Positions 1-49,111 of a DNA stretch of 64,000 nucleotides are shown piece by piece. How positions within the stretch are numbered: position 1 is the stretch's first letter; the number at the start of each line of letters is the position of its first letter. The stretch lies in NCBI GenBank assembly GCA_001508005.1, contig LGEZ01000006.1, positions 14,179-78,178 on the forward strand, given 5' to 3'. The stretch is from Clostridia bacterium 41_269. Lineage in GTDB: Bacteria > Bacillota > DTU086. The notes beneath the pieces are model-generated. The model saw only the letters and a list, made by a program, of their open reading frames with translations. It did not search any database and was not told the origin of the DNA. A program made the position numbers and the translations under genes.

Positions 1-2960
1 TGTAAATTACAATTTAACTTTTGGGCAATGGCTTCAATTAATTCCATTTCAGCATTGCTGATTCTCTTTCCATCACAAAGGATAAGGGGATTTTGTGCTT
101 TAATGAATCGAAGTGCAAAGGACATTATCTTTTCTGGTTTAGTTAAAAATCTTTTTAAAATGTTTTGCATATCTTCTAAACTATCCCTATCCCTTTCTTT
201 TGTAAATTCAGATATCAGTTTGATCAGTTTCAGCAGTTCAAAAACTTTTTTCGGACTAATATGGAGGGTTAACGCTGCTGTATTATCAAATCTGGTAGGT
301 TTGCTGTTTATAATCCCTATTTCACTCTTCCCATCCCTAACAGCCCTTCTCAGGATATTACCTAAAACTGGATAATCCAAAGACGGATCTATATTCAATA
401 ACAGAATAAAATCATTTGCTCCTATATCTTTAAATCTGGATAAATTTGGAGACTGAATTAAAGCTTTTGTCCCTTCAGAATCAGGAGAAAGAATACCAAT
501 ATTATCTGTTTTCAGTACTGTCCTGCATAATTTTAAGGCCGCAAAAGCATCTTCATTGGTTATTTTTGGTGAAATAAGACAGGCAATTTCATTCTGAGGT
601 TCACTATCTTTAATAAAACGGGAAAGACCCCAGACTGCTCTTTTATATGCATTCTCCCAAGAAGTTTTCACCAATGATCCATTAACCTTTACCAAAGGAT
701 CTGAAAGGCGCTTCCCAAACCTATTATATACGGTGTATCCAAAGGCTCCTTTAAAACACAAATTCCCTCTATTAATTTCACTATCTATGGGTGCCGTTAC
801 TTTTACCACTCCATATTTTGTGGTATTCAGCTCAATATCGCAGGCTATACTGCAGTGGGGACATACCGAAGCCGTTTTTTGGACACTCCACGGCCCTGGT
901 TTGGGCATTGACACCTTTATTAAAAGAGCTCCTGTGGGACAAACAGATACACACTGACCGCAGAACTCACACTGGGTTTTTGAAAGAGGCAGTTCTAGGG
1001 ATGGTTTAATAACGGTTTTAAGCCCTCTATTGACATAACCCAAGGCACCTACTCCTTGAACTTCCTGACAGATTCTCACACAGCTGCCGCACAATATGCA
1101 TTTGCCTGGATCTCTTAAAATATATTCATTATCATTAAGCAGCGGGTTATATTCTGCAATATTCAATAATTGGTTATTCTCAACCTTATATAGAGATGCC
1201 AATTCCCTGAGCCTGCACTCAAAGCCTTCACTGCATCCGCAGGAAAGACAGCGCTCTGCTTCCTTCACTGCCTGTTTTTCAGTAAAACCTTCCACTATTT
1301 CATCAAAATTGGTAATCCTTCTTTCGACTGACAGAACAGCTTCTTTCTGCCTTGGCTTTTTGGGAATATCTTTAAACTCTTCAGGATCTATTTCTTCAAG
1401 CCTGCCTTTACTGCAGTTGTAAGGCTTGGGTTCCGGAATTACAGCTTCACCCCTCAAGTATTTATCCACTGCCAGAGCAGCTTTTTTCCCGCATCCTATG
1501 GCTTCAACAACAGTACTTGGGCCTGTTACACAGTCGCCAGCAGCAAAAACCCATTCCACAGAAGTTCTAAATGTTTCCGGTTCCACCTCAATAAGTCCCC
1601 AGCGGCTTATCTTTATTTCAGGACTGCCCTTTAAGCTTTCAGCTTCCATGATCTGTCCCACTGCCATAATAACTGTGTCAGCCTCTATTGAAAACTCTGA
1701 ACCTTCAATGGGAACAGGTCTTCTTCTGCCGCTTGCATCAGGCTCCCTCAGTTCCATACGTATGCACTCCACTGCTTCCAATTTTCGGTCGCAGATAATA
1801 TTCACTGGACTGGCAAGAAAAATAAATTTTACCCCTTCTTCTTTAGCTTCAGCTACTTCCCTCGGTTCCGCAGGCATTTCCTTTTCTGTTCTTCTGTATA
1901 CAACTATAACTTCTTTAGCCCCCATCCTTACGGCAGTCCTCGCTACATCCATTGCTGTATTTCCGCCGCCGATAACCACCACTTTTTCCCCTAAGGAAAT
2001 ATCCCTACCGTAGGCAACGGATTTCAGAAACTCTACACCTGAATAAACTCCTGGTTTATCAATTCCTTCCATAGAAAGCCTTTGTTCTGCTTGACATCCT
2101 ATGGATAAAAAAACAGCATCAAAGCCCTGTTCTTTTAAGCTTTGAGGATTAAAATCCCTTCCCATTTTCATTCCGCATTTTGCTTCTATACCAAGTTGTA
2201 AAATATGTTCTATTTCTTTATCCAGAACTTCCTTGGGAAGCCTGTATTGGGGGATGCCGTAACGCATCATACCCCCCAATTCCTGCTCCGCTTCAAAAAC
2301 AACAACTCTGTGCCCTTTCCTGCGCAGATAGTAGGCTGCAGTTAAGCCTGCAGGACCTCCTCCTACCACCGCAACCCTTTTCCCCGTATCTGGTAGAATG
2401 TTTAATATGTGGGAATTATTATTTTTTAGGGCTTCATCCCCAGCAAAACGCTTAAGAAGGCAGATGGAAACAGGCTCATCAACTAACTGCCTGCGGCATT
2501 CCTTTTCACAAAATTTCGGACATATCCTTCCCACAGATGAAGGAAAAGGAAGATCTTCTCTTATCAGCTCAGCTGCTTCAACATAAGCACCGTTTGCAAT
2601 ATGGGCTATGAAACCTTGAATATCTATTCCAGCAGGACATGCATTGCGGCAGGGCGCTGTGCAGTCACCGTAATGATTGGAAAGAATAAGCTCAAGAGCT
2701 GTTTTCCTAATTTCAAAAAGGGTACTGCTGTTTGTTCTTACAACCATACCCTCTGACACTTCTGTTGAACAGGCTGTTACAGGCTTGGGATAATTATCTA
2801 TTTCTACAAAACATAGGCGGCAAGCACCGTAGGGTTCAATTCTGGGATCATAACAAAGGCTGGGAATATCAATCCCTACTTTTCTTGCAGCTTCAATAAT
2901 TGTGATTCCTTTTTCCACTGTAACTTCTATTCCATCAATCGTTAAATTTACTGTCTCCAT
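1..2960 (-). CDS. Multidomain oxidoreductase subunit (2Fe-2S ferredoxin-like, GltD/NfnB-like FAD/NAD(P)H domain, 4Fe-4S clusters, NuoG/Fdh-like molybdopterin-oxidoreductase domain); C-terminus lies outside the window
   Basis: Absent from the ORF track because it runs off the edge. The minus frame is open from the ATG at 2960 to base 1, and ATGGAGACAGTAA overlaps the upstream stop. My translation gives [13 protein letters not shown]...[27 protein letters not shown] and [12 protein letters not shown] (two Rossmann motifs), [23 protein letters not shown], then CPHCSIAC...NRGNLCFKG. Confidence 0.75.
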
Positions 2961-4765
2961 GAGCTTCCCTCCCCCCCGTTAAGCCCTGCTGGCATTCCTT
3001 TCGAGACAGTTTCCACTGCATCAAACCTGCAGGTTTCTGAACATATACCACACTTAATGCATTTCTTAATATTTATCCTATACGGATGATTTTTTTCTCC
3101 TTCTACAGCATTAGCAGGACATTTTTTAGCACAAAGCCCACATCCAATACATTTTTCAGCACTAATTCTGTACTCGATAAGCTCTATGCACTTACCGGCA
3201 GGACATCTTTTTTCATAAACATGGGCTTCATATTCTTCCCGAAAATATTTCAATGTTGTTAGAACTGGATTGGGAGCTGTCTGCCCCAATCCGCAGAGAG
3301 AACCCTTTATTATTTTCTCTCCTAAATCTTGAAGTCTTTCTAAATCCCCGGGCTCTCCTTGTCCGCTGCATATTCTGTCCAATATTTTAAGCATCTGATA
3401 TGTTCCTATCCTGCAAAAAGTACACTTTCCACAGGATTCACTGGTTGTAAACTTTAAAAAAAAGCGGGCAACATCAACCATACATGTATCCTCATCCATT
3501 ACTATAAGTCCCCCGGAACCCATTATAGCTCCTGCGCTTTTTAAAGCTTCATAATCAACCGTTATATCTGCCATACTTGCAGGAATGCAGCCCCCGGAAG
3601 GACCTCCAGTTTGTACGGCTTTAAAAGCTTTTTGTGTGGAAATTCCACCACCTATATCAAATACTATTTCTCTAATGGTTGTACCCATGGGTACCTCAAT
3701 TAAGCCCCCTCGCTTTACCTTTCCTGCAAGGGCAAATATTTTAGTTCCCTTACTCTTTTCTGTACCGCAGGAACTGAAAACATCAGCACCCTCGGAAAGA
3801 ATTCTTGCAGCTGCAGCCAAAGTTTCCACATTATTGATGCAGGTAGGTTTCCCCCACAACCCTTTTTGAGCAGGAAACGGAGGTTTAAAACGGGGCATCC
3901 CCCTATGGCCCTCTATGCTGGCCATAAGGGCTGTCTCCTCACCACATACAAAAGCTCCTGCTCCTTCACGAATCTCTACGTCAAATGTGAAATTTCCATT
4001 AAATATACCCTTTCCCAGAAATCCTTTTTTGCGTGCCTGTTCAATGGCTATTCTGAGCCTTTTTATGGCAAGGGGATATTCAGCACGAATATAAACATAC
4101 CCCTTTTCTGCTCCAATGGCATATGCAGCTATGGCCATTCCCTCTAACACACTATGGGGATCGCTTTCCAGCACACTTCTATCCATAAAAGCTCCCGGAT
4201 CTCCTTCATCAGCGTTGCATATTATATATTTTGGTGTACCATGGGCTTCACGGGTAAGCTTCCATTTAATATGGGTTGGAAAGCCGGCACCACCACGACC
4301 CCTCAGTCCCGCTTTCTCGATTTCCAATATAACATCAGCAGGAGTCATAGCAACGGCTTTTTCTAAGCCTTTATACCCTCCTGCTTCAAGGTAGCTGTTT
4401 ATATTTTCAGGATCAATTTTTCCGCTGTTTTTCAGAAGTATCCGGTGCTGTTTTTTGAGGTATTTACTTTCTTCTGTTTCAAAAGTGCTGGAATAAACAA
4501 TCCATTCTTTTATGGGATTTCCCTGCAGTATATGTTCTTTTACTATCCTTTCTGCCTTTTTTACATCAACACTGCCATAGATAAAGGTACCGGTTTCGTC
4601 ATTAATCTCAACAAGGGGTTCTTTAAAGCACATTCCAATGCAGCCTGTTTTCATAAGCTTAGTCTTTTCTTTTGGCAGATTAGATTCTAAATAATCAAAA
4701 ACTTTACTTGCTCCTGCTGCAATACCGCAGCTTGCCAAACCAACTTTTATTGTTTTTAGGTACAT
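2948..4765 (-). CDS. NuoF/HydB-like NADH-binding flavoprotein subunit (FMN, 4Fe-4S; N-terminal thioredoxin-like 2Fe-2S region; C-terminal 2x[4Fe-4S] ferredoxin)
   Basis: 605-aa ORF with [21 protein letters not shown], and C-terminal [12 protein letters not shown] and [11 protein letters not shown]. The stop overlaps the start of the downstream fusion gene. Confidence 0.9.
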
Positions 4766-4804: not shown

Positions 4805-5299
4805 CTAATCTCTTGGCATCTTTTTTATTTCCTTTATAAGCTCCTTTGCTTTTTCCTGAGTCATCCTACCATGGGTTTCTCCATTAACCGTTATGACAGG
4901 AGCCAAACTGCAGCAGCCCAAACAGGCAACCTTTTCCACGGTAATTTTCCCGTCTGGGCCGGTTTCACCTTCAGTAATACCAGCAGCTCGACAAAGGGCA
5001 CTTGCAATCTCGTCAGCTCCAGCAAGATGACAGGCAGTTCCATGGCATACCTGAATCAGCACTTCGCCAATGGGCTTTAAGCGGAATTGTGAATAAAAAG
5101 TTACAATTCCAAAAAGATCGCTTGAATTAATGCCGGTTAATTGAGAAATCCTATAAAGGGCGAATTTTGGTATATATCCCAATTCCTTTTGAATGTCCTG
5201 CAGAATTGGAATGGCAGCACCGCGTTTATCAGCATGCCTTTTTACAATAGAATCAATTTTATCTTCTATTTTTACAGAGGCAGCCCTTTTTTCTTCCAT
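4805..5299 (-). CDS. NuoE/HydC-like thioredoxin-fold 2Fe-2S subunit
   Basis: 164 aa with the CHGTACHLAG ... CLGCCSLAPV cluster motifs typical of 24-kDa-type subunits. It lies directly upstream of the NuoF-like gene. Confidence 0.9.
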   Translation of the reverse strand: MEEKRAASVKIEDKIDSIVKRHADKRGAAIPILQDIQKELGYIPKFALYRISQLTGINSSDLFGIVTFYSQFRLKPIGEVLIQVCHGTACHLAGADEIASALCRAAGITEGETGPDGKITVEKVACLGCCSLAPVITVNGETHGRMTQEKAKELIKEIKKMPRD

Positions 5300-5301
5300 G
5301 G

Positions 5302-5595
5302 TTAAGCACCACCCAAAAGAGATTCAATATCATAAAGGGATAAACATCTTTTATCCTGTAAAGCTACAAATTTTAATACCTCTACCTTTGTAATCCAGGA
5401 AAGATTTTCTATACTGCGTGCCAATTCATCAATGCTGCCGCTGGTTTCTATCATCACTACAAGGTCATACTTACCCACAACGGGGTCCACAAAGTCCACC
5501 TCAAATTTCTTTTCCAGTTCAGACACTGCTTCAATAAAAGCGTCTTTATCCAGGGTATCTGAAACTTTAATTAAAAGATAAGCCCTTGAAGCCAT
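5302..5595 (-). CDS. Small stand-alone Lrp/AsnC ligand-binding (RAM)-like domain protein
   Basis: 97 aa (ASRAYLLIKV...YDLVVMIETSG...) with a beta-alpha-beta-beta-alpha-beta-like pattern. Its stop is 2 nt from the nuoE-like ATG, so it is probably the first gene of that operon. Confidence 0.45.
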   Translation of the reverse strand: MASRAYLLIKVSDTLDKDAFIEAVSELEKKFEVDFVDPVVGKYDLVVMIETSGSIDELARSIENLSWITKVEVLKFVALQDKRCLSLYDIESLLGGA

Positions 5596-43967: not shown

Positions 43968-44969
43968 TTATACTTCTTTGTTTAAGCTCTTATTTAAATC
44001 ACCAAAGCTTTTGTAACCATGCAGTGAATCAGCATTTTTTACAGCCCTAACAACAGCTCTTTCAACAACATGTGCCGCAAGATATCCAAGCAGATTCAAA
44101 TCCACATTTACTTTACAAGTTGACAGCGTAAATATAGTGTCCCCATCAACCATTGTATGGGAAGGACAAACAGTTCTTGCCAACCCATCATGGGCCGCTG
44201 AAGCAATTCTGTTTGCCTGAGCTTTATTTAATACAGCATTGGTAGCTACAACTCCTATTACGGTATTACCTCCATTTAAAAAACCTAATCTGCCTCTACT
44301 GTACAAATCCAAAAGACGAACAGCAGAATCAGCAAAAGTAACTTTATCCTTATTAAGAGCACCAGCAATAATTTTATTGCCCTCAAAAGGATCTATTACA
44401 TCTCCCAAACAATTCACAGCCATTACAGCACCCACCTTTAAATCACCAAACTGAATACTGTATGTTCCAAGACCGCCTTTCATAGCATATTCAAATCCCA
44501 ACAGCTTCCCCACAGTTGCACCAGTTCCTGCTCCAACATTTCCTTCCGGACATTCTGCTTTTTCTGAATTAAGGCAGGCTTTGTAGCCCATATTTTTATC
44601 AGGTCGAACGTCATGTTTACCTATCTGAAGATCATAAAGAACAGCTCCAACCACTATGGGCACTTTTGCTGCTGCTGTTTCAAAGCCTATATTTTTTTCC
44701 TCCAAATACTGCATAACTCCAGCAGCAGCATCCAAGCCAAAAGCGCTGCCGCCTGTTAACAGCACAGCATGAACTTTTTCAACTAAATTTGAGGGATCCA
44801 ATAGATCTGTTTCCCTGGTACCAGGAGCACCTCCCCTCACATCTACACCGGCAACTGCTCCTTCTTCACACAAAATAACAGTACAGCCCGTTGCAGCCTC
44901 TAAATCCTGCTCATGACCGATCTTTAAACCTATATCGGTAAATTTTATGGTTTTCATAATCATTCCCAC
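43968..44969 (-). CDS. Peptidase S58 (DmpA / P1 family) aminopeptidase-like
   Basis: 333 aa: GCTVILCE, GAPGTRETDLL, GNTVIGVVATNAVLNKAQANR. Confidence 0.65.
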   Translation of the reverse strand: MGMIMKTIKFTDIGLKIGHEQDLEAATGCTVILCEEGAVAGVDVRGGAPGTRETDLLDPSNLVEKVHAVLLTGGSAFGLDAAAGVMQYLEEKNIGFETAAAKVPIVVGAVLYDLQIGKHDVRPDKNMGYKACLNSEKAECPEGNVGAGTGATVGKLLGFEYAMKGGLGTYSIQFGDLKVGAVMAVNCLGDVIDPFEGNKIIAGALNKDKVTFADSAVRLLDLYSRGRLGFLNGGNTVIGVVATNAVLNKAQANRIASAAHDGLARTVCPSHTMVDGDTIFTLSTCKVNVDLNLLGYLAAHVVERAVVRAVKNADSLHGYKSFGDLNKSLNKEV

Positions 44970-44994
44970 CCATTTTAAAAAATTTTATATTGAT

Positions 44995-45021
44995 AAAAAT
45001 CCCGGATTTACCGGGATTTTT
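44995..45021 (-). terminator. Intrinsic (bidirectional-looking) terminator after the M20 gene
   Basis: AAAAATCCCGG-TAAAT-CCGGGATTTTT. Confidence 0.55.
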
Positions 45022-45025
45022 ATAC

Positions 45026-46318
45026 TTAAATTTTCTCTGTATTGCACCACTCTAAAATAAATTTAAATATAATTTTAGTGTAAGCCAAAAGATTGTCAAC
45101 ACTTACACTTTCATCTACGCTGTGAGCCTTTCCCAGCTCGCCGGGACCATAAATTACTGTGGGAATCCCCGCCTCTGCAAGCCAACCTGCATCGGTTACC
45201 GTGGGTGACATATCTACCACCGGCGGACTACCCACAATTTCTGCGTGAATGCTTTCCAAAAGCTTTAACCCTTCATGGTTCCTATCCAGTTCAAGTGATG
45301 GAAAAATTTCGCCTCTATCTTCAAGCATAGATTTTCCTCCCCAGCGGAAAAGGGGTGGGTTTTCTTTAAGCCAAGGATCAGCTTTTGCAACATTTAAAAT
45401 ATGTTCTTCAATCTCTTTCGAAACATCTTCATAATTTTCATTGGGATAAAAATGCACTGTTATCCATAAAGAACATCTATCTGCTACAAACGCAGCATGT
45501 CTGCCCCCTTCAATCACAGCGGGGTTAATGGTATTGCTTCCCGGTGGAAATCCTGGATAGCTTTTCACCACTGCCCAGTGTCTTTCCAATTCCTGCAAGC
45601 CCTGTACAATTTTAACCATTTTTTCCACTGTGCTGGCAGCAAATAGGCCTCCTCCGGCATGAATCATTTTTGCTCTAACTCCATCATGATAAGTATTAGG
45701 ACTTTGAACAGTTATCCAGCCTGTAATTACACCACCCTGCCCATACTGCAGCTTAAAATCGCTTATATCTCCCACTATGGCAAAATCTGCTTTAGGTCCT
45801 TTCTGTACAGCTTCTAAGGTAATTCCTTCACCTGCTTCTTCACCTGTAACACTGTGAAAAATAAGATTTCCACCCAAAGAAACATTTTTTTCTTTAAGAA
45901 GTTTCAGAATTAAAAGATAAGCCGCTTGTGCAGCTTTCATATCCGAAGCTCCCCTACCAAACAGCCTTCCATCTTTAACAAAGGGCTTAAAGGGATCAAA
46001 GGACCATTGGGAATCATCTCCCACTTCTGCAACATCCACATGGGTATTCAGGATGAGGCTCTTATATTTTTGGGGATTAGCTCCTGAAATTACGGCTACA
46101 ATATTAGGATCTCCTTTAAAAGTTTCCCAGCGTATAATTTCTGCATCCAAATTTTTAAGATAATCCTCAATAAAATTTTGAATCTCAGTGCTATTTCTAC
46201 CAGGCGGGCTCACATTGGGAAATGATATAAGTTTTGAAGCCAATTCAATCAGTTCATCCCTGTGTTTGTCAATCAATTTTTCAACATCAAAATCAAATTC
46301 AAATTCATTTTTATTCAT
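45026..46318 (-). CDS. M20 family (ArgE/DapE/YlmB-like) amidohydrolase
   Basis: 430 aa: NTHVDVAEVGD, GRGASDMKAAQAA, SVTGEEAGEG. The start is 27 nt after the SSS stop, with a GGGGGGAG RBS. Confidence 0.75.
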   Translation of the reverse strand: MNKNEFEFDFDVEKLIDKHRDELIELASKLISFPNVSPPGRNSTEIQNFIEDYLKNLDAEIIRWETFKGDPNIVAVISGANPQKYKSLILNTHVDVAEVGDDSQWSFDPFKPFVKDGRLFGRGASDMKAAQAAYLLILKLLKEKNVSLGGNLIFHSVTGEEAGEGITLEAVQKGPKADFAIVGDISDFKLQYGQGGVITGWITVQSPNTYHDGVRAKMIHAGGGLFAASTVEKMVKIVQGLQELERHWAVVKSYPGFPPGSNTINPAVIEGGRHAAFVADRCSLWITVHFYPNENYEDVSKEIEEHILNVAKADPWLKENPPLFRWGGKSMLEDRGEIFPSLELDRNHEGLKLLESIHAEIVGSPPVVDMSPTVTDAGWLAEAGIPTVIYGPGELGKAHSVDESVSVDNLLAYTKIIFKFILEWCNTEKI

Positions 46319-46345
46319 TTAGCTCCCCCCTGAAATTTTAAAAAA

Positions 46346-47773
46346 TCAGCTGTGAATATCCTGAACCTTTTCTTTTAAAGTTTCAAAATTCAATTCACAC
46401 TTATAAATTTTTTCTAAAACCAGGGACAACACTATTGAAGCAGCTGCTGCCAGCAGGAAGCTTGTGAGAAGGTCTCCGCGCTGCATTGAAGGATCAGGGA
46501 AAAATGGTACTCCTGCAGCAATACCTCCGAGAATGGATATAACACCTGCGGTGCCGCTGTATTTCTTTGAAAACATTCCATAAAATGTGGGAAAGACAGC
46601 AGCTGTGCAAACTAAATCTGCAATTAAGAAAAGATAAAGTACGCTGTACCCCTTAGACGCCACAAATATAACAATTCCGCATATTATCGCAGTTATTACC
46701 CTTGCACAAGTTTGAAGAACAGAAGCCTTAAGTCCTGGTTTAAATCGTGCAATATCCACAGTAAAAACTGCAGCCAAAGCATTGATGAGAGTATCAACAC
46801 TGCTCATAACAAGGGCAATAGCCAGCAGAACCACAACATATATTACCCAAGAAGCTGTCTTATTCATTACAACCTCAAATAGAGCAGCAGAAGGAGACTG
46901 AAGTGTGCCTTCAGCAACTGCTAACAGCCCGAAGGAACCAGTCATCATCATGACCGGAATAATTAATATACCAGCAAGCAAAAATGATCTGCGCACAACT
47001 GTGTTATTTCTGCAGGCATAAACCCTGGACCAAAAGCCTTGATTAAACATATTCGCAGCTACTATCGCAATCGTTAGAGATGCTGCAAACCTCAAACCTC
47101 CTATATTTTTAAGGCTTAAAAGATCAGGATTAATGCTTTTTATTCTTACAATCATATCTTCAAATCCACCAGTATAATGGGCAGTTGCAAAAAATGCAAT
47201 TAAAACTGTTGGCAGAACAACCAAAGCCTGAATAACATCCGTAAAAATAGATCCCCTAATTCCGCCATAAGCTGTATATATAAGGGTTCCACACCCAATG
47301 ATAAGCGCTGTAACCCATAGGGGAATGCCAGCCGCCAAATTAACTGCTGTAGCAATACCCGTTAACTCAGCAGCTAAAAATATAGCCATGTAAAATACCC
47401 CGATTAAAAGTACCAGCGCATACATACCCCTTCCATAGCGATAAAAAACAAATTCAAATAAAGTTGTTCCTTTTGGAGCCAATTCCCGCATTCTTGGCCC
47501 AAAAAAAGCAAAAACCATTACCGCTATAGCTTGAGCTAGAGCATAGCCTCCAAAAGCAGCAATTCCACCCCATGTACCTGCTTCAGCAGGTGTAAATAAT
47601 ATCCATGAACCCATTATCGACGCAAATATAGTCATCGATGCAGGAAAAGTACTAAAACGGTTACGAGCCGTCAAATAGTCGTCAAGTTTTAAATACCTGT
47701 CATTTGTTAAATAAATATAAGCAACAGCAGTTATAGTAAACAGCATAACCACAGCAAACAGCCAAAAAATCAT
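46346..47773 (-). CDS. Sodium:solute symporter (SSS) family transporter
   Basis: 475 aa, about 13 TM segments, GGIRGSIFTDVIQALVV signature. AGGAGG RBS. First gene after the TPP riboswitch. Confidence 0.8.
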   Translation of the reverse strand: MIFWLFAVVMLFTITAVAYIYLTNDRYLKLDDYLTARNRFSTFPASMTIFASIMGSWILFTPAEAGTWGGIAAFGGYALAQAIAVMVFAFFGPRMRELAPKGTTLFEFVFYRYGRGMYALVLLIGVFYMAIFLAAELTGIATAVNLAAGIPLWVTALIIGCGTLIYTAYGGIRGSIFTDVIQALVVLPTVLIAFFATAHYTGGFEDMIVRIKSINPDLLSLKNIGGLRFAASLTIAIVAANMFNQGFWSRVYACRNNTVVRRSFLLAGILIIPVMMMTGSFGLLAVAEGTLQSPSAALFEVVMNKTASWVIYVVVLLAIALVMSSVDTLINALAAVFTVDIARFKPGLKASVLQTCARVITAIICGIVIFVASKGYSVLYLFLIADLVCTAAVFPTFYGMFSKKYSGTAGVISILGGIAAGVPFFPDPSMQRGDLLTSFLLAAAASIVLSLVLEKIYKCELNFETLKEKVQDIHS

Positions 47774-47900
47774 TTTATTGATTCCTCCTATAATTATTTT
47801 TTAATAAAATCATGAAAAAACATTATATATATATATTCCAGAAAGAAAACCCCTACGTTCATATCCCCCCTTTCTAAAATTTTCCGCCTCGGGAAATTTA

Positions 47901-47934
47901 AAAAGCTACTGCACAGCAGTAGCTTTTTTTTTTT
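47901..47934 (-). terminator. Riboswitch expression-platform terminator
   Basis: Minus strand reads A13-GCTACTGC-TGT-GCAGTAGC-TTTTTAAATTT, 30-60 nt 3' of the TPP aptamer. Confidence 0.65.
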
Positions 47935-47963
47935 TTATAAAATATCTTTCTTTTTATTTTCAA

Positions 47964-48066
47964 CTACCGCCCTGCCTACGCTGGTATTACCCAGTTCAGG
48001 TCCTAGGGGTCTGCAGCCTTTTAAAAGCTGCACTCTCAGCTTACTGAAGAGCTCCCCCGGCGGAAA
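47964..48066 (-). promoter_or_regulatory. TPP (THI-box) riboswitch
   Basis: Minus strand reads CCGCCGGGGGAGCUCUUCAGUAAGCUGAGAG-[P3 stem UGCAGC..GCUGCA]-GACCCCUAGGACCUGAACUGGGUAAUACCAGCGUAGGCAGGGCGG. It contains the conserved CUGAGA, ACCC and ACCUGA.CUGG.UAAU.CCAGCGUAGG elements and a CCGCC/GGCGG P1 helix. Confidence 0.85.
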
Positions 48067-48288
48067 ATTTTTTATTCAATTTTTCTCTTATATCTATTCT
48101 ATTACATTAACAGTTAAATTTAAAGTATTAGAAATCATAAATACTTTTAAAAATTTAAAAAAACAAAAATTTTGAAAATTATTACAAAATAAAGTGGTTT
48201 TTTAGGAATTATCTTAACATCATAAACCTCTATAAAAAACAAAAAATATTAATGGTGTGTAGTTGTTAATTAAAAAGGAGGTCCCAAA

Positions 48289-48486
48289 TTGGCAAGAAAA
48301 GGATCTATAATGTCCGATGCCTTGAAGTGGGAACTCGCAAAGGAAATGGGTGTTGATCACATTGTAGCAACAGAAGGTTGGGGAGGAGTTCCTTCCCGCC
48401 AATGCGGAATGCTTGTAAAAAAGGCTATTGAAAGAGCAGAAAGAAGTATTGCTAACAGTGATCAAACCTACCCACAACAAAAATAA
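48289..48486 (+). CDS. Alpha/beta-type small acid-soluble spore protein
   Basis: 65 aa: ALKWELAKEMGV...GGVPSRQCGMLVKKAIERAE. TTG start 7 nt after AAAGGAGG. Confidence 0.9.
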   Translation: MARKGSIMSDALKWELAKEMGVDHIVATEGWGGVPSRQCGMLVKKAIERAERSIANSDQTYPQQK

Positions 48487-48616: not shown

Positions 48617-49111
48617 GTGGAAGATTTCACCATTGAAGTATTTATTGAAATTCCTCGTGGAAGTAATAACAAATATGAATACGATAAGGAAAAAGGGCTC
48701 TTTCGATTAGATAGGGTCTTATATTCTCCCGTTTTTTATCCGGCTGATTACGGCTTTATACCTGATACCCTTGCAGATGATGGTGATGCCCTTGATGCAA
48801 TGGTCATGACTACTTTTCCAACTTTTCCTGGATGCCTTATAAAAGCAAGAATTATTGGTATGTTCATAATGGAAGATGAAAAAGGAAAAGATGAAAAAAT
48901 TTTAGGAGTACCAGTCAATGATCCTCGATTTGATAACATTAAATCTCTTGAAGATCTTGAAAAACATATATTAAAAGAATTTGAACATTTCTTTTCAGTC
49001 TATAAAAATCTTGAAGGGAAAGAAGTAATAGTTAAAGGGTGGACTGACAAATGGGAAGCTATGAAAACTATTGAAAAAGCCAAGCAGAAATACACCGAAA
49101 TACCTATATAA
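48617..49111 (+). CDS. ppa: Family I inorganic pyrophosphatase
   Basis: 164 aa: EIPRGSNNKYEYDK, YPADYGFIP, DGDALDAMV. GTG start after GGAGGGG. Confidence 0.9.
   Translation: MEDFTIEVFIEIPRGSNNKYEYDKEKGLFRLDRVLYSPVFYPADYGFIPDTLADDGDALDAMVMTTFPTFPGCLIKARIIGMFIMEDEKGKDEKILGVPVNDPRFDNIKSLEDLEKHILKEFEHFFSVYKNLEGKEVIVKGWTDKWEAMKTIEKAKQKYTEIPI

Follow-up and report, generated by a model that had tools for sequence, protein, structure and literature searches.

The locus described here lies on the minus strand at positions 45,026–48,066 of a 64,000-nucleotide (nt) stretch of Clostridia bacterium 41_269 DNA (contig LGEZ01000006.1, positions 14,179–78,178 of the forward strand; hereafter the window, whose numbering is used throughout) and comprises a riboswitch for thiamine pyrophosphate (TPP) followed by two closely spaced genes, a thiV-type transporter gene and a ylmB-like hydrolase gene. 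In the direction of transcription, the minus-strand elements are a TPP riboswitch aptamer, or THI element (47955–48068); an intrinsic terminator that forms part of the riboswitch expression platform (47900–47928, identified by a terminator scan and by folding); an AGGAGG ribosome-binding site read from the sequence (47784–47789); thiV, encoding a 475-amino-acid (aa) sodium:solute symporter of the ThiV/SSSP family (46346–47773, with its ATG at 47773); the ylmB-like gene, encoding a 430-aa M20 metallo-amidohydrolase and starting 27 nt after thiV (45026–46318); and an operon-end intrinsic terminator with a 13-bp stem (44993–45023, terminator scan), which could work both ways because A and U runs flank its stem. 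A first-pass annotation of the window had described a hairpin with a T-tract, the ribosome-binding site, open reading frames of 475 and 430 aa, and a closing terminator, and each is found where it was placed.

The first-pass annotation had also placed a THI-box aptamer on the minus strand, and a search with Rfam model RF00059 returns a significant, full-length match (E 5e-12) that spans model positions 1–105 of 105 and scores 71.2 bits, where the gathering score is 54.3. Helix P1 is formed by CCGCC (48063–48059) paired with GGCGG (47971–47967), and the conserved ligand-contact cores (CUGAGA; ACCUGA...UAAUACC...GCGUAGG) are all present. The leader comparison used six related leaders only, among which these cores are invariant. 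In particular, the aptamer is near-invariant in the orthologous leaders at loci L001, L090, L081, and L093 (loci used for comparison carry codes of this form). L001, the nearest genome locus, belongs to a metagenome-assembled genome (MAG) named 'Clostridia bacterium' (MAG JAAYIF01, contig JAAYIF010000056.1), has the same gene order, and encodes proteins 87–89% identical to those of the window. An Rfam scan of the whole 64-kb window revealed no second riboswitch. Judged by its sequence, the aptamer itself is an ordinary TPP riboswitch, for which TPP binding and repression are predicted.

The terminator of the expression platform consists of a stem in which AGCUACUGC (47924–47916) pairs with GCAGUAGCU (47912–47904) around a UGU loop, preceded by an A run and followed by a U run (47903–47900). 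This stem is 100% paired across the six leaders and contains one compensatory pair (U-A in four, C-G in two). The expression platform as described in the first-pass annotation lacked an ordinary antiterminator, and folding supplies one: the minus-strand segment GCGGUAGUU (47962–47970), which comprises the 3′ strand of P1 and its flank, is able to bind AGCUACUGC, the 5′ half of the terminator. In the minimum-free-energy (MFE) fold with the terminator 3′ half withheld, as if untranscribed, GCGGUAGUU pairs with AGCUACUGC at −49.1 kcal/mol, as compared with −60.1 kcal/mol for the fold with P1 and the terminator. Over the six leaders, 86.8% of the cells of the antiterminator helix are paired, and the helix shows no covariation; the covariation analysis is underpowered, since a metagenome scan for the invariant aptamer core added just two sequences, which are near-identical copies of the type seen in L001. 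As modelled, it works as an OFF switch of the classical terminator/antiterminator kind, and its alternative pairing, which is computed only, depends on P1. It resembles the TPP riboswitches of Bacillus thiamine operons in having a full aptamer, a downstream intrinsic terminator, and a P1 3′ strand that doubles as the antiterminator.

The product of the first gene matches the Pfam family SSF (PF00474) over residues 33–406 (E 2e-23). Comparison with ThiV reference sequences, taken from the supplement of PMC11452348, places it with that family, the identity being 39% to SAR11 ThiV (Q4FMG0, SAR11_0811) over 430 residues (E 3e-95, 286 bits) and 26–33% to the eukaryotic riboswitch-linked SSSP/SSSQ proteins (E 3e-30 to 2e-51; 172 bits for Phaeodactylum SSSP). 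Matches to PanF (E 8e-13, 59 bits) and SiaT (E 6e-9, 47 bits) are partial, the match to PutP is weak (E 8e-4, 30 bits), and the protein scores far under the cut-offs of the NCBIfam equivalogs for PanF and PutP. Two motifs of the family, N[LM]F[HN]QG[FY]W and SVLYLFLIADL, are common to the window transporter and the ThiV/SSSP proteins, and the window transporter falls inside the ThiV clade of a neighbour-joining (NJ) tree.

The genomic contexts of its relatives connect the transporter to thiamine. A genome scan of Bacteria and Archaea found at least 583 loci that encode relatives, of which 80 were retrieved for context counts. At least 50 of these 80 have a THI-box pattern on the strand of the transporter gene and no more than 450 nt upstream of it; elsewhere in the 1.88 Mb of two-strand sequence the pattern matches nine times, mostly further upstream in the same operons. 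Rfam confirms TPP riboswitches at L001, L009, L010, L081, and L090. The thi neighbours of the ThiV-family genes are, in order of frequency, ThiD (33 of the 80 loci), ThiE (20), TenA (18), ThiW (12), ThiL (11), and ThiM (10), and one locus, L084, carries a complete salvage operon, thiV-thiW-thiD-thiM-thiE-thiL. On the strength of the similarity to ThiV, the THI boxes, and the thi neighbours in relatives, the 475-aa protein is a bona fide ThiV. As a member of the ThiV/SSSP family, it is predicted to import pyrimidine vitamers of thiamine.

These results bear on how the carrier had been viewed. Orthologues in other genomes do sit behind THI elements, and the frequency of those elements, together with the weak PanF and PutP matches, sets the carrier apart from the proline and pantothenate carriers. 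[quoted passage not shown] The transporter itself is not what makes the locus unusual; its coupling to YlmB is.

Two side observations concern these relatives. In L084 (5796–5933) and L082 (~5230–5335), and probably also in L002–L008, the TPP aptamer carries a hairpin insertion of ~31 nt in the P3 arm. The L084 aptamer scores 41.5 bits (E 5.5e-07), below the gathering score of 54.3, so the aptamers of these Firmicute thiV-thiW-thiD-thiM-thiE(-thiL) operons are missed by standard annotation. In L005, a Symbiobacterium MAG, the minus strand carries a domain of a group II intron (4864–5025; RF02001, 99 bits) ~1 kb 5′ of thiV.

In Bacillus, base-degraded thiamine is salvaged by the successive action of ThiXYZ (an ATP-binding cassette, or ABC, importer), YlmB (a deformylase), TenA (thiaminase II), and ThiD. 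The product of the second gene in the window combines the domains Peptidase_M20 (PF01546) and M20_dimer (PF07687) and scores 664.5 bits against NCBIfam NF006370 (PRK08596), far above the cut-off of 412; this family presumably contains Bacillus subtilis YlmB (O31724). The protein does not reach the ArgE and DapE equivalogs (TIGR01892 for ArgE, 118 against 297.7; TIGR01246 for DapE, 85 against 361.8; also NF003474, 92 against 460, and TIGR01900, 84 against 304.2); for TIGR01892, TIGR01246, and TIGR01900 the score is between one-quarter and two-fifths of the cut-off. None of the M20 motifs for metal binding and catalysis (H93-x-D95, D126, E160-E161, and H399) is disrupted, and they are invariant in 13 family members. 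A search for a close solved structure found none, the best match being 3pfo (E 1.5e-24).

The M20 protein is ~60% identical to many proteins of Bacillaceae and Paenibacillaceae, which NCBI names 'acetylornithine deacetylase' and for several of which the JGI name is 'formylaminopyrimidine deformylase'. In the Bacillus locus L087, a ~60%-identical M20 gene overlaps tenA by a few bases and is preceded by a TPP riboswitch of 78.5 bits. TPP riboswitches also lie upstream of the M20-bearing operons in the window, L001, L081, L090, and L095, and the NF006370 proteins whose context was inspected have tenA and/or a TPP riboswitch nearby. YlmB converts FAMP (N-formyl-4-amino-5-aminomethyl-2-methylpyrimidine) to AmMP (4-amino-5-aminomethyl-2-methylpyrimidine), the substrate of TenA (PMC5627462; PMC10470507). 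From these sequence comparisons we infer that the M20 protein is orthologous to YlmB, and we predict that it is a FAMP deformylase. The window protein shares with ArgE and DapE the M20 catalytic and dimerisation domains, the metal-binding motifs, and the automatic NCBI name; it differs from them in equivalog scores that are far too low and in a thiamine context in place of an arginine or lysine one. The earlier view of the hydrolase as a YlmB-like M20 enzyme is supported by the NF006370 score, the failed equivalogs, and the relatives with tenA behind TPP riboswitches. The label 'acetylornithine deacetylase' attached to NF006370, which has spread to hundreds of proteins, is probably a misannotation of YlmB-type deformylases.

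The thiV-M20 pairing occurs in one of the 80 genome loci (L001) and in five metagenome loci, all within one group of Clostridia; with only one genome locus in 80 paired, the arrangement is rare and lineage-restricted. The window, L001, L090, and L093 carry the pair in the same neighbourhood. L081 carries it in a different one (argS/pyrG), from which it follows that the pair moves as a unit. Two further loci extend it with tenA: L088 has the order thiV-M20-tenA, and L089 has the order thiD-thiM-thiE-HAD-thiV-M20-tenA on a contig that opens mid-aptamer with a TPP aptamer's 3′ half. Immediately upstream of the L088 cluster (2350–4444) is a gene for a PucR-family regulator, a position that may mean protein-based control in place of control by RNA.

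In the NJ tree, the transporters of the window, L001, L090, and L081 group together in 100 of 100 bootstraps. A single origin of the pairing was considered and rejected: none of the 100 bootstraps unites all six M20-linked transporters. In L095 (1505–1742) and L096 (1–~200), the riboswitch and terminator, which are of the window type, are separated from the M20 gene by a tandem repeat with a 36-nt unit (6.6 copies, 90% matches). Both loci share the L081 neighbourhood, and the repeat array stands where L081 has thiV; thiV appears to have been lost there and replaced by the array. We found no published account of a thiV-ylmB linkage in the openly readable literature, where the only paper naming both genes uses them as separate BLAST queries.

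Downstream of the riboswitch terminator, the leader contains a second element, which we term the anti-P1 segment. This segment, CCCGAGGCGGAAAAUUU (47877–47893, minus strand), is complementary to AAAUUUUCCGCCGGGG, the 5′ flank and 5′ strands of P1 and P2, and agrees with the reverse complement of that region at 16 of 18 positions; specifically, its portion CCCGAGGCGG (47893–47884) is complementary to the 5′ strand of P1. It is a point of difference from the Bacillus thiamine-operon riboswitches: the window riboswitch adds a conserved post-terminator complement of the P1 and P2 5′ strands, with a spacer of about 100 nt to the ribosome-binding site. The first-pass annotation had taken such a segment as a hint of a more complex expression platform. 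The segment is real and is kept in the closest relatives; the statistical and covariation support for it is weak.

Since the anti-P1 segment is transcribed after the termination decision, it cannot influence that decision. Two roles are plausible but unproven: it may prevent the aptamer from folding, or it may give the read-through mRNA a structured 5′ end. In one form of this idea, the segment would be a functional third riboswitch element, a clamp on the P1/P2 5′ strand of read-through transcripts that makes the ON state irreversible or provides a 5′-terminal structure shielding the mRNA from 5′-end-dependent decay. The energetics are favourable to a clamp, with −27.2 kcal/mol for the anti-P1 duplex against −11.2 kcal/mol for native P1, and the helix is present in the full-leader MFE fold of all five thiV-linked orthologous leaders (window, L001, L093, L090, and L081). 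Its 8-bp core is 95.8% paired, as compared with 36–55% when the partner is slid, and contains one covarying pair (U-A in three, C-G in two). The helix is degraded in L095, the locus without thiV. Controls temper this picture. The helix lies ~5 standard deviations beyond shuffled-sequence controls in the window and L001 and is significant in those two only, L090 and L081 being within ~1 standard deviation of their controls; across the six related sequences, it does not exceed the shuffle control (90/500). Neither the leader of Bacillus ylmB nor the leaders of distant thiV genes contain the element. On balance, we regard a functional clamp as possible but doubtful.

Two other roles for this part of the leader were considered and rejected. 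Translational control by an anti-Shine-Dalgarno action of the anti-P1 segment finds no convincing complement of AGGAGG, and conservation is poor in the spacer that runs from the segment to the ribosome-binding site. A conserved upstream open reading frame likewise fails: the window has a 22-codon frame after GGGGGG in this spacer, and inspection by eye found no matching start or frame in L001 or L081. The spacer (47790–47876, minus strand) starts with a G-rich motif, GGGRGGAU, that is kept in the window, L001, L093, L090, and L081; no conserved open reading frame and no obvious pairing partner were found for it.

Taken together, these elements probably constitute a two-gene thiamine-pyrimidine salvage operon, thiV-ylmB, shut off by TPP through a transcription-terminating riboswitch. 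At high TPP, the bound aptamer would lock P1 and make its 3′ strand unavailable, so that the terminator hairpin would form and transcription would stop before thiV. At low TPP, GCGGUAGUU would instead pair with the terminator 5′ half, and polymerase would read through this antiterminator. In the read-through RNA, the anti-P1 segment may then pair with the freed P1/P2 5′ strand and keep the aptamer unfolded. ThiV would bring in pyrimidine vitamers of thiamine by sodium-coupled transport, and the YlmB-type enzyme would deformylate FAMP to AmMP. TenA and ThiD, presumably encoded elsewhere in the genome, would complete the conversion to HMP and then to HMP pyrophosphate for thiamine synthesis. The salvage module proposed in the first-pass annotation accordingly survives in its main part, as comparison supports well a THI-controlled ThiV-type carrier with a YlmB-like M20 enzyme; what falls is the portrayal of the carrier as rare and uncharacterised.

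The proposed operon parallels FAMP salvage in Bacillus in having a YlmB-type M20 enzyme under THI control and in its pathway logic, with tenA directly downstream in the relatives L087, L088, and L089. It differs in that the window importer is a secondary Na+ symporter, not an ABC system, and in that tenA is not in the window. With the ThiV/SSSP proteins of SAR11 and eukaryotes, the window transporter shares the sodium:solute symporter fold, the family motifs, an upstream TPP riboswitch, and thi-salvage neighbours in relatives. Co-transcription with a YlmB-type deformylase sets the window clade apart from those proteins and points to FAMP or AmMP as possible cargo beyond HMP.

Several observations weigh against the thiV-ylmB salvage operon as just outlined. 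The pathway is incomplete as seen: the first-pass annotation had noted no thi biosynthesis gene in the operon, and tblastn finds no thiD, thiM, thiE, thiL, thiW, or tenA homologue either there or anywhere in the 64-kb window. Riboswitch control of M20 or thiV-M20 is not universal, since a permissive-threshold Rfam scan of the 400-nt leader of L088 finds no riboswitch and pattern inspection of the leader of L091, which has the L081 neighbourhood and the M20 gene alone, finds no THI-box motif. The SAR11 ThiV work reports specificity for HMP (PMC11452348), and a Candida relative is described as a thiamin transporter. Finally, M20-linked ThiVs are interspersed with thiW- and thiD-linked ThiVs in the NJ tree, a polyphyly that favours a carrier of broad pyrimidine range over one dedicated to FAMP. 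This pattern suggests that ThiV may be a general importer of pyrimidine vitamers whose gene partners decide which vitamer is usable.

Some of the same observations can be read differently, namely that ThiV imports HMP, or thiamine, as has been proposed for relatives in SAR11 and yeast, and that the YlmB-type enzyme handles only FAMP arising from thiamine damaged inside the cell, the two genes sharing a regulator and having separate substrates. The HMP specificity of SAR11 ThiV and the polyphyly of the M20-linked ThiVs fit this account, as do the neighbour counts, in which the HMP kinase gene thiD adjoins 33 of the 80 ThiV genes as compared with one for M20 and 18 for tenA, and the occurrence of the M20 gene without thiV in L087, L091, and L095. 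Gene order opposes it: the 27-nt spacing, the retention of the pair across the neighbourhoods of the window and L081, and the order thiV-M20-tenA in two further branches suggest joint selection of transporter and hydrolase, and the tenA adjoining 18 of the 80 ThiV genes is needed for aminomethyl and formyl pyrimidines, not for HMP. We consider separate substrates unlikely. An operon unrelated to thiamine, pairing an ArgE/DapE-type deacylase or peptidase with an importer of amino acids, pantothenate, or peptides and perhaps with an S58 peptidase encoded downstream, draws on the NCBI name of NF006370 and on the S58 gene that follows in the window, L001, L090, and L093, but is very improbable and largely refuted by the high-scoring TPP riboswitch directly upstream, by ArgE, DapE, PanF, and PutP equivalog scores far below their cut-offs, by a carrier much nearer to ThiV than to PanF or PutP, by relatives that sit with tenA, thiD, thiM, and thiE, and by the terminator that parts M20 from S58, which is absent from L081, L088, and L089.

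The remaining features of the region lie at its edges. At the 3′ end, an S58 (DmpA-like) peptidase gene (43968–44969, minus strand) follows the M20 gene and the operon-end terminator, and S58 genes are found in the same place in L001, L090, and L093. We considered this gene as a third member of the operon and rejected it on the grounds of the intervening terminator and the lack of S58 in L081, L088, and L089. Two Chloroflexota loci (L042, ~1836–2828; L077, ~2338–2838) also have an S58 homologue at ~3 kb from thiV, probably by coincidence. At the 5′ end, a consensus scan gives a tentative promoter-like site on the minus strand, TTTAAA-17 nt-TAGAAT (48096–48124; 9 of 12 consensus positions), ~20 nt 5′ of the aptamer, and the match is not above shuffle expectation. 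The intergenic region in which it sits is divergent and is delimited by a 65-aa plus-strand open reading frame (48289–48486). From its translation by eye (MSDALKWELAKEMGV...), this frame resembles an alpha/beta-type small acid-soluble spore protein; an inorganic-pyrophosphatase-like frame, likewise recognised by eye from its translation, follows on the plus strand (48617–49111). The host is a spore-forming member of the Clostridia, with SigK and SpoVD-like genes just upstream of the locus.

All parts of the thiV-ylmB operon are of known kinds, and thiV beside ylmB in place of ThiXYZ is an uncommon arrangement of known parts, a sound but modest finding. A more far-reaching proposal would be that the Clostridia ThiV clade travelling with ylmB is a Na+-coupled importer of FAMP, and perhaps of AmMP, which would make it the first secondary carrier for base-degraded thiamine, replacing ThiXYZ, with the post-terminator clamp fixing the ON state or stabilising the mRNA; we advance this combination as speculative and rather doubtful.

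The arrangement nonetheless has a bearing on how degraded thiamine may enter cells. In coastal and ocean water, FAMP, the formylated pyrimidine of degraded thiamine, is measured at concentrations of tens of picomolar, and some plankton can use it (PMC10470507; PMC10881298). According to recent marine work, no transporter is known for FAMP or for AmMP, and most users have no recognisable YlmB (PMC10470507; PMC10881298). In a small way, the anti-P1 complement bears on the fate of the aptamer in read-through riboswitch RNAs. The thiV gene, sharing its transcript with ylmB and, in relatives, with tenA as well, is a concrete candidate for the uptake of FAMP and AmMP, and close ThiV relatives linked to thiD only would form a natural comparison set for mapping substrate specificity in the family.

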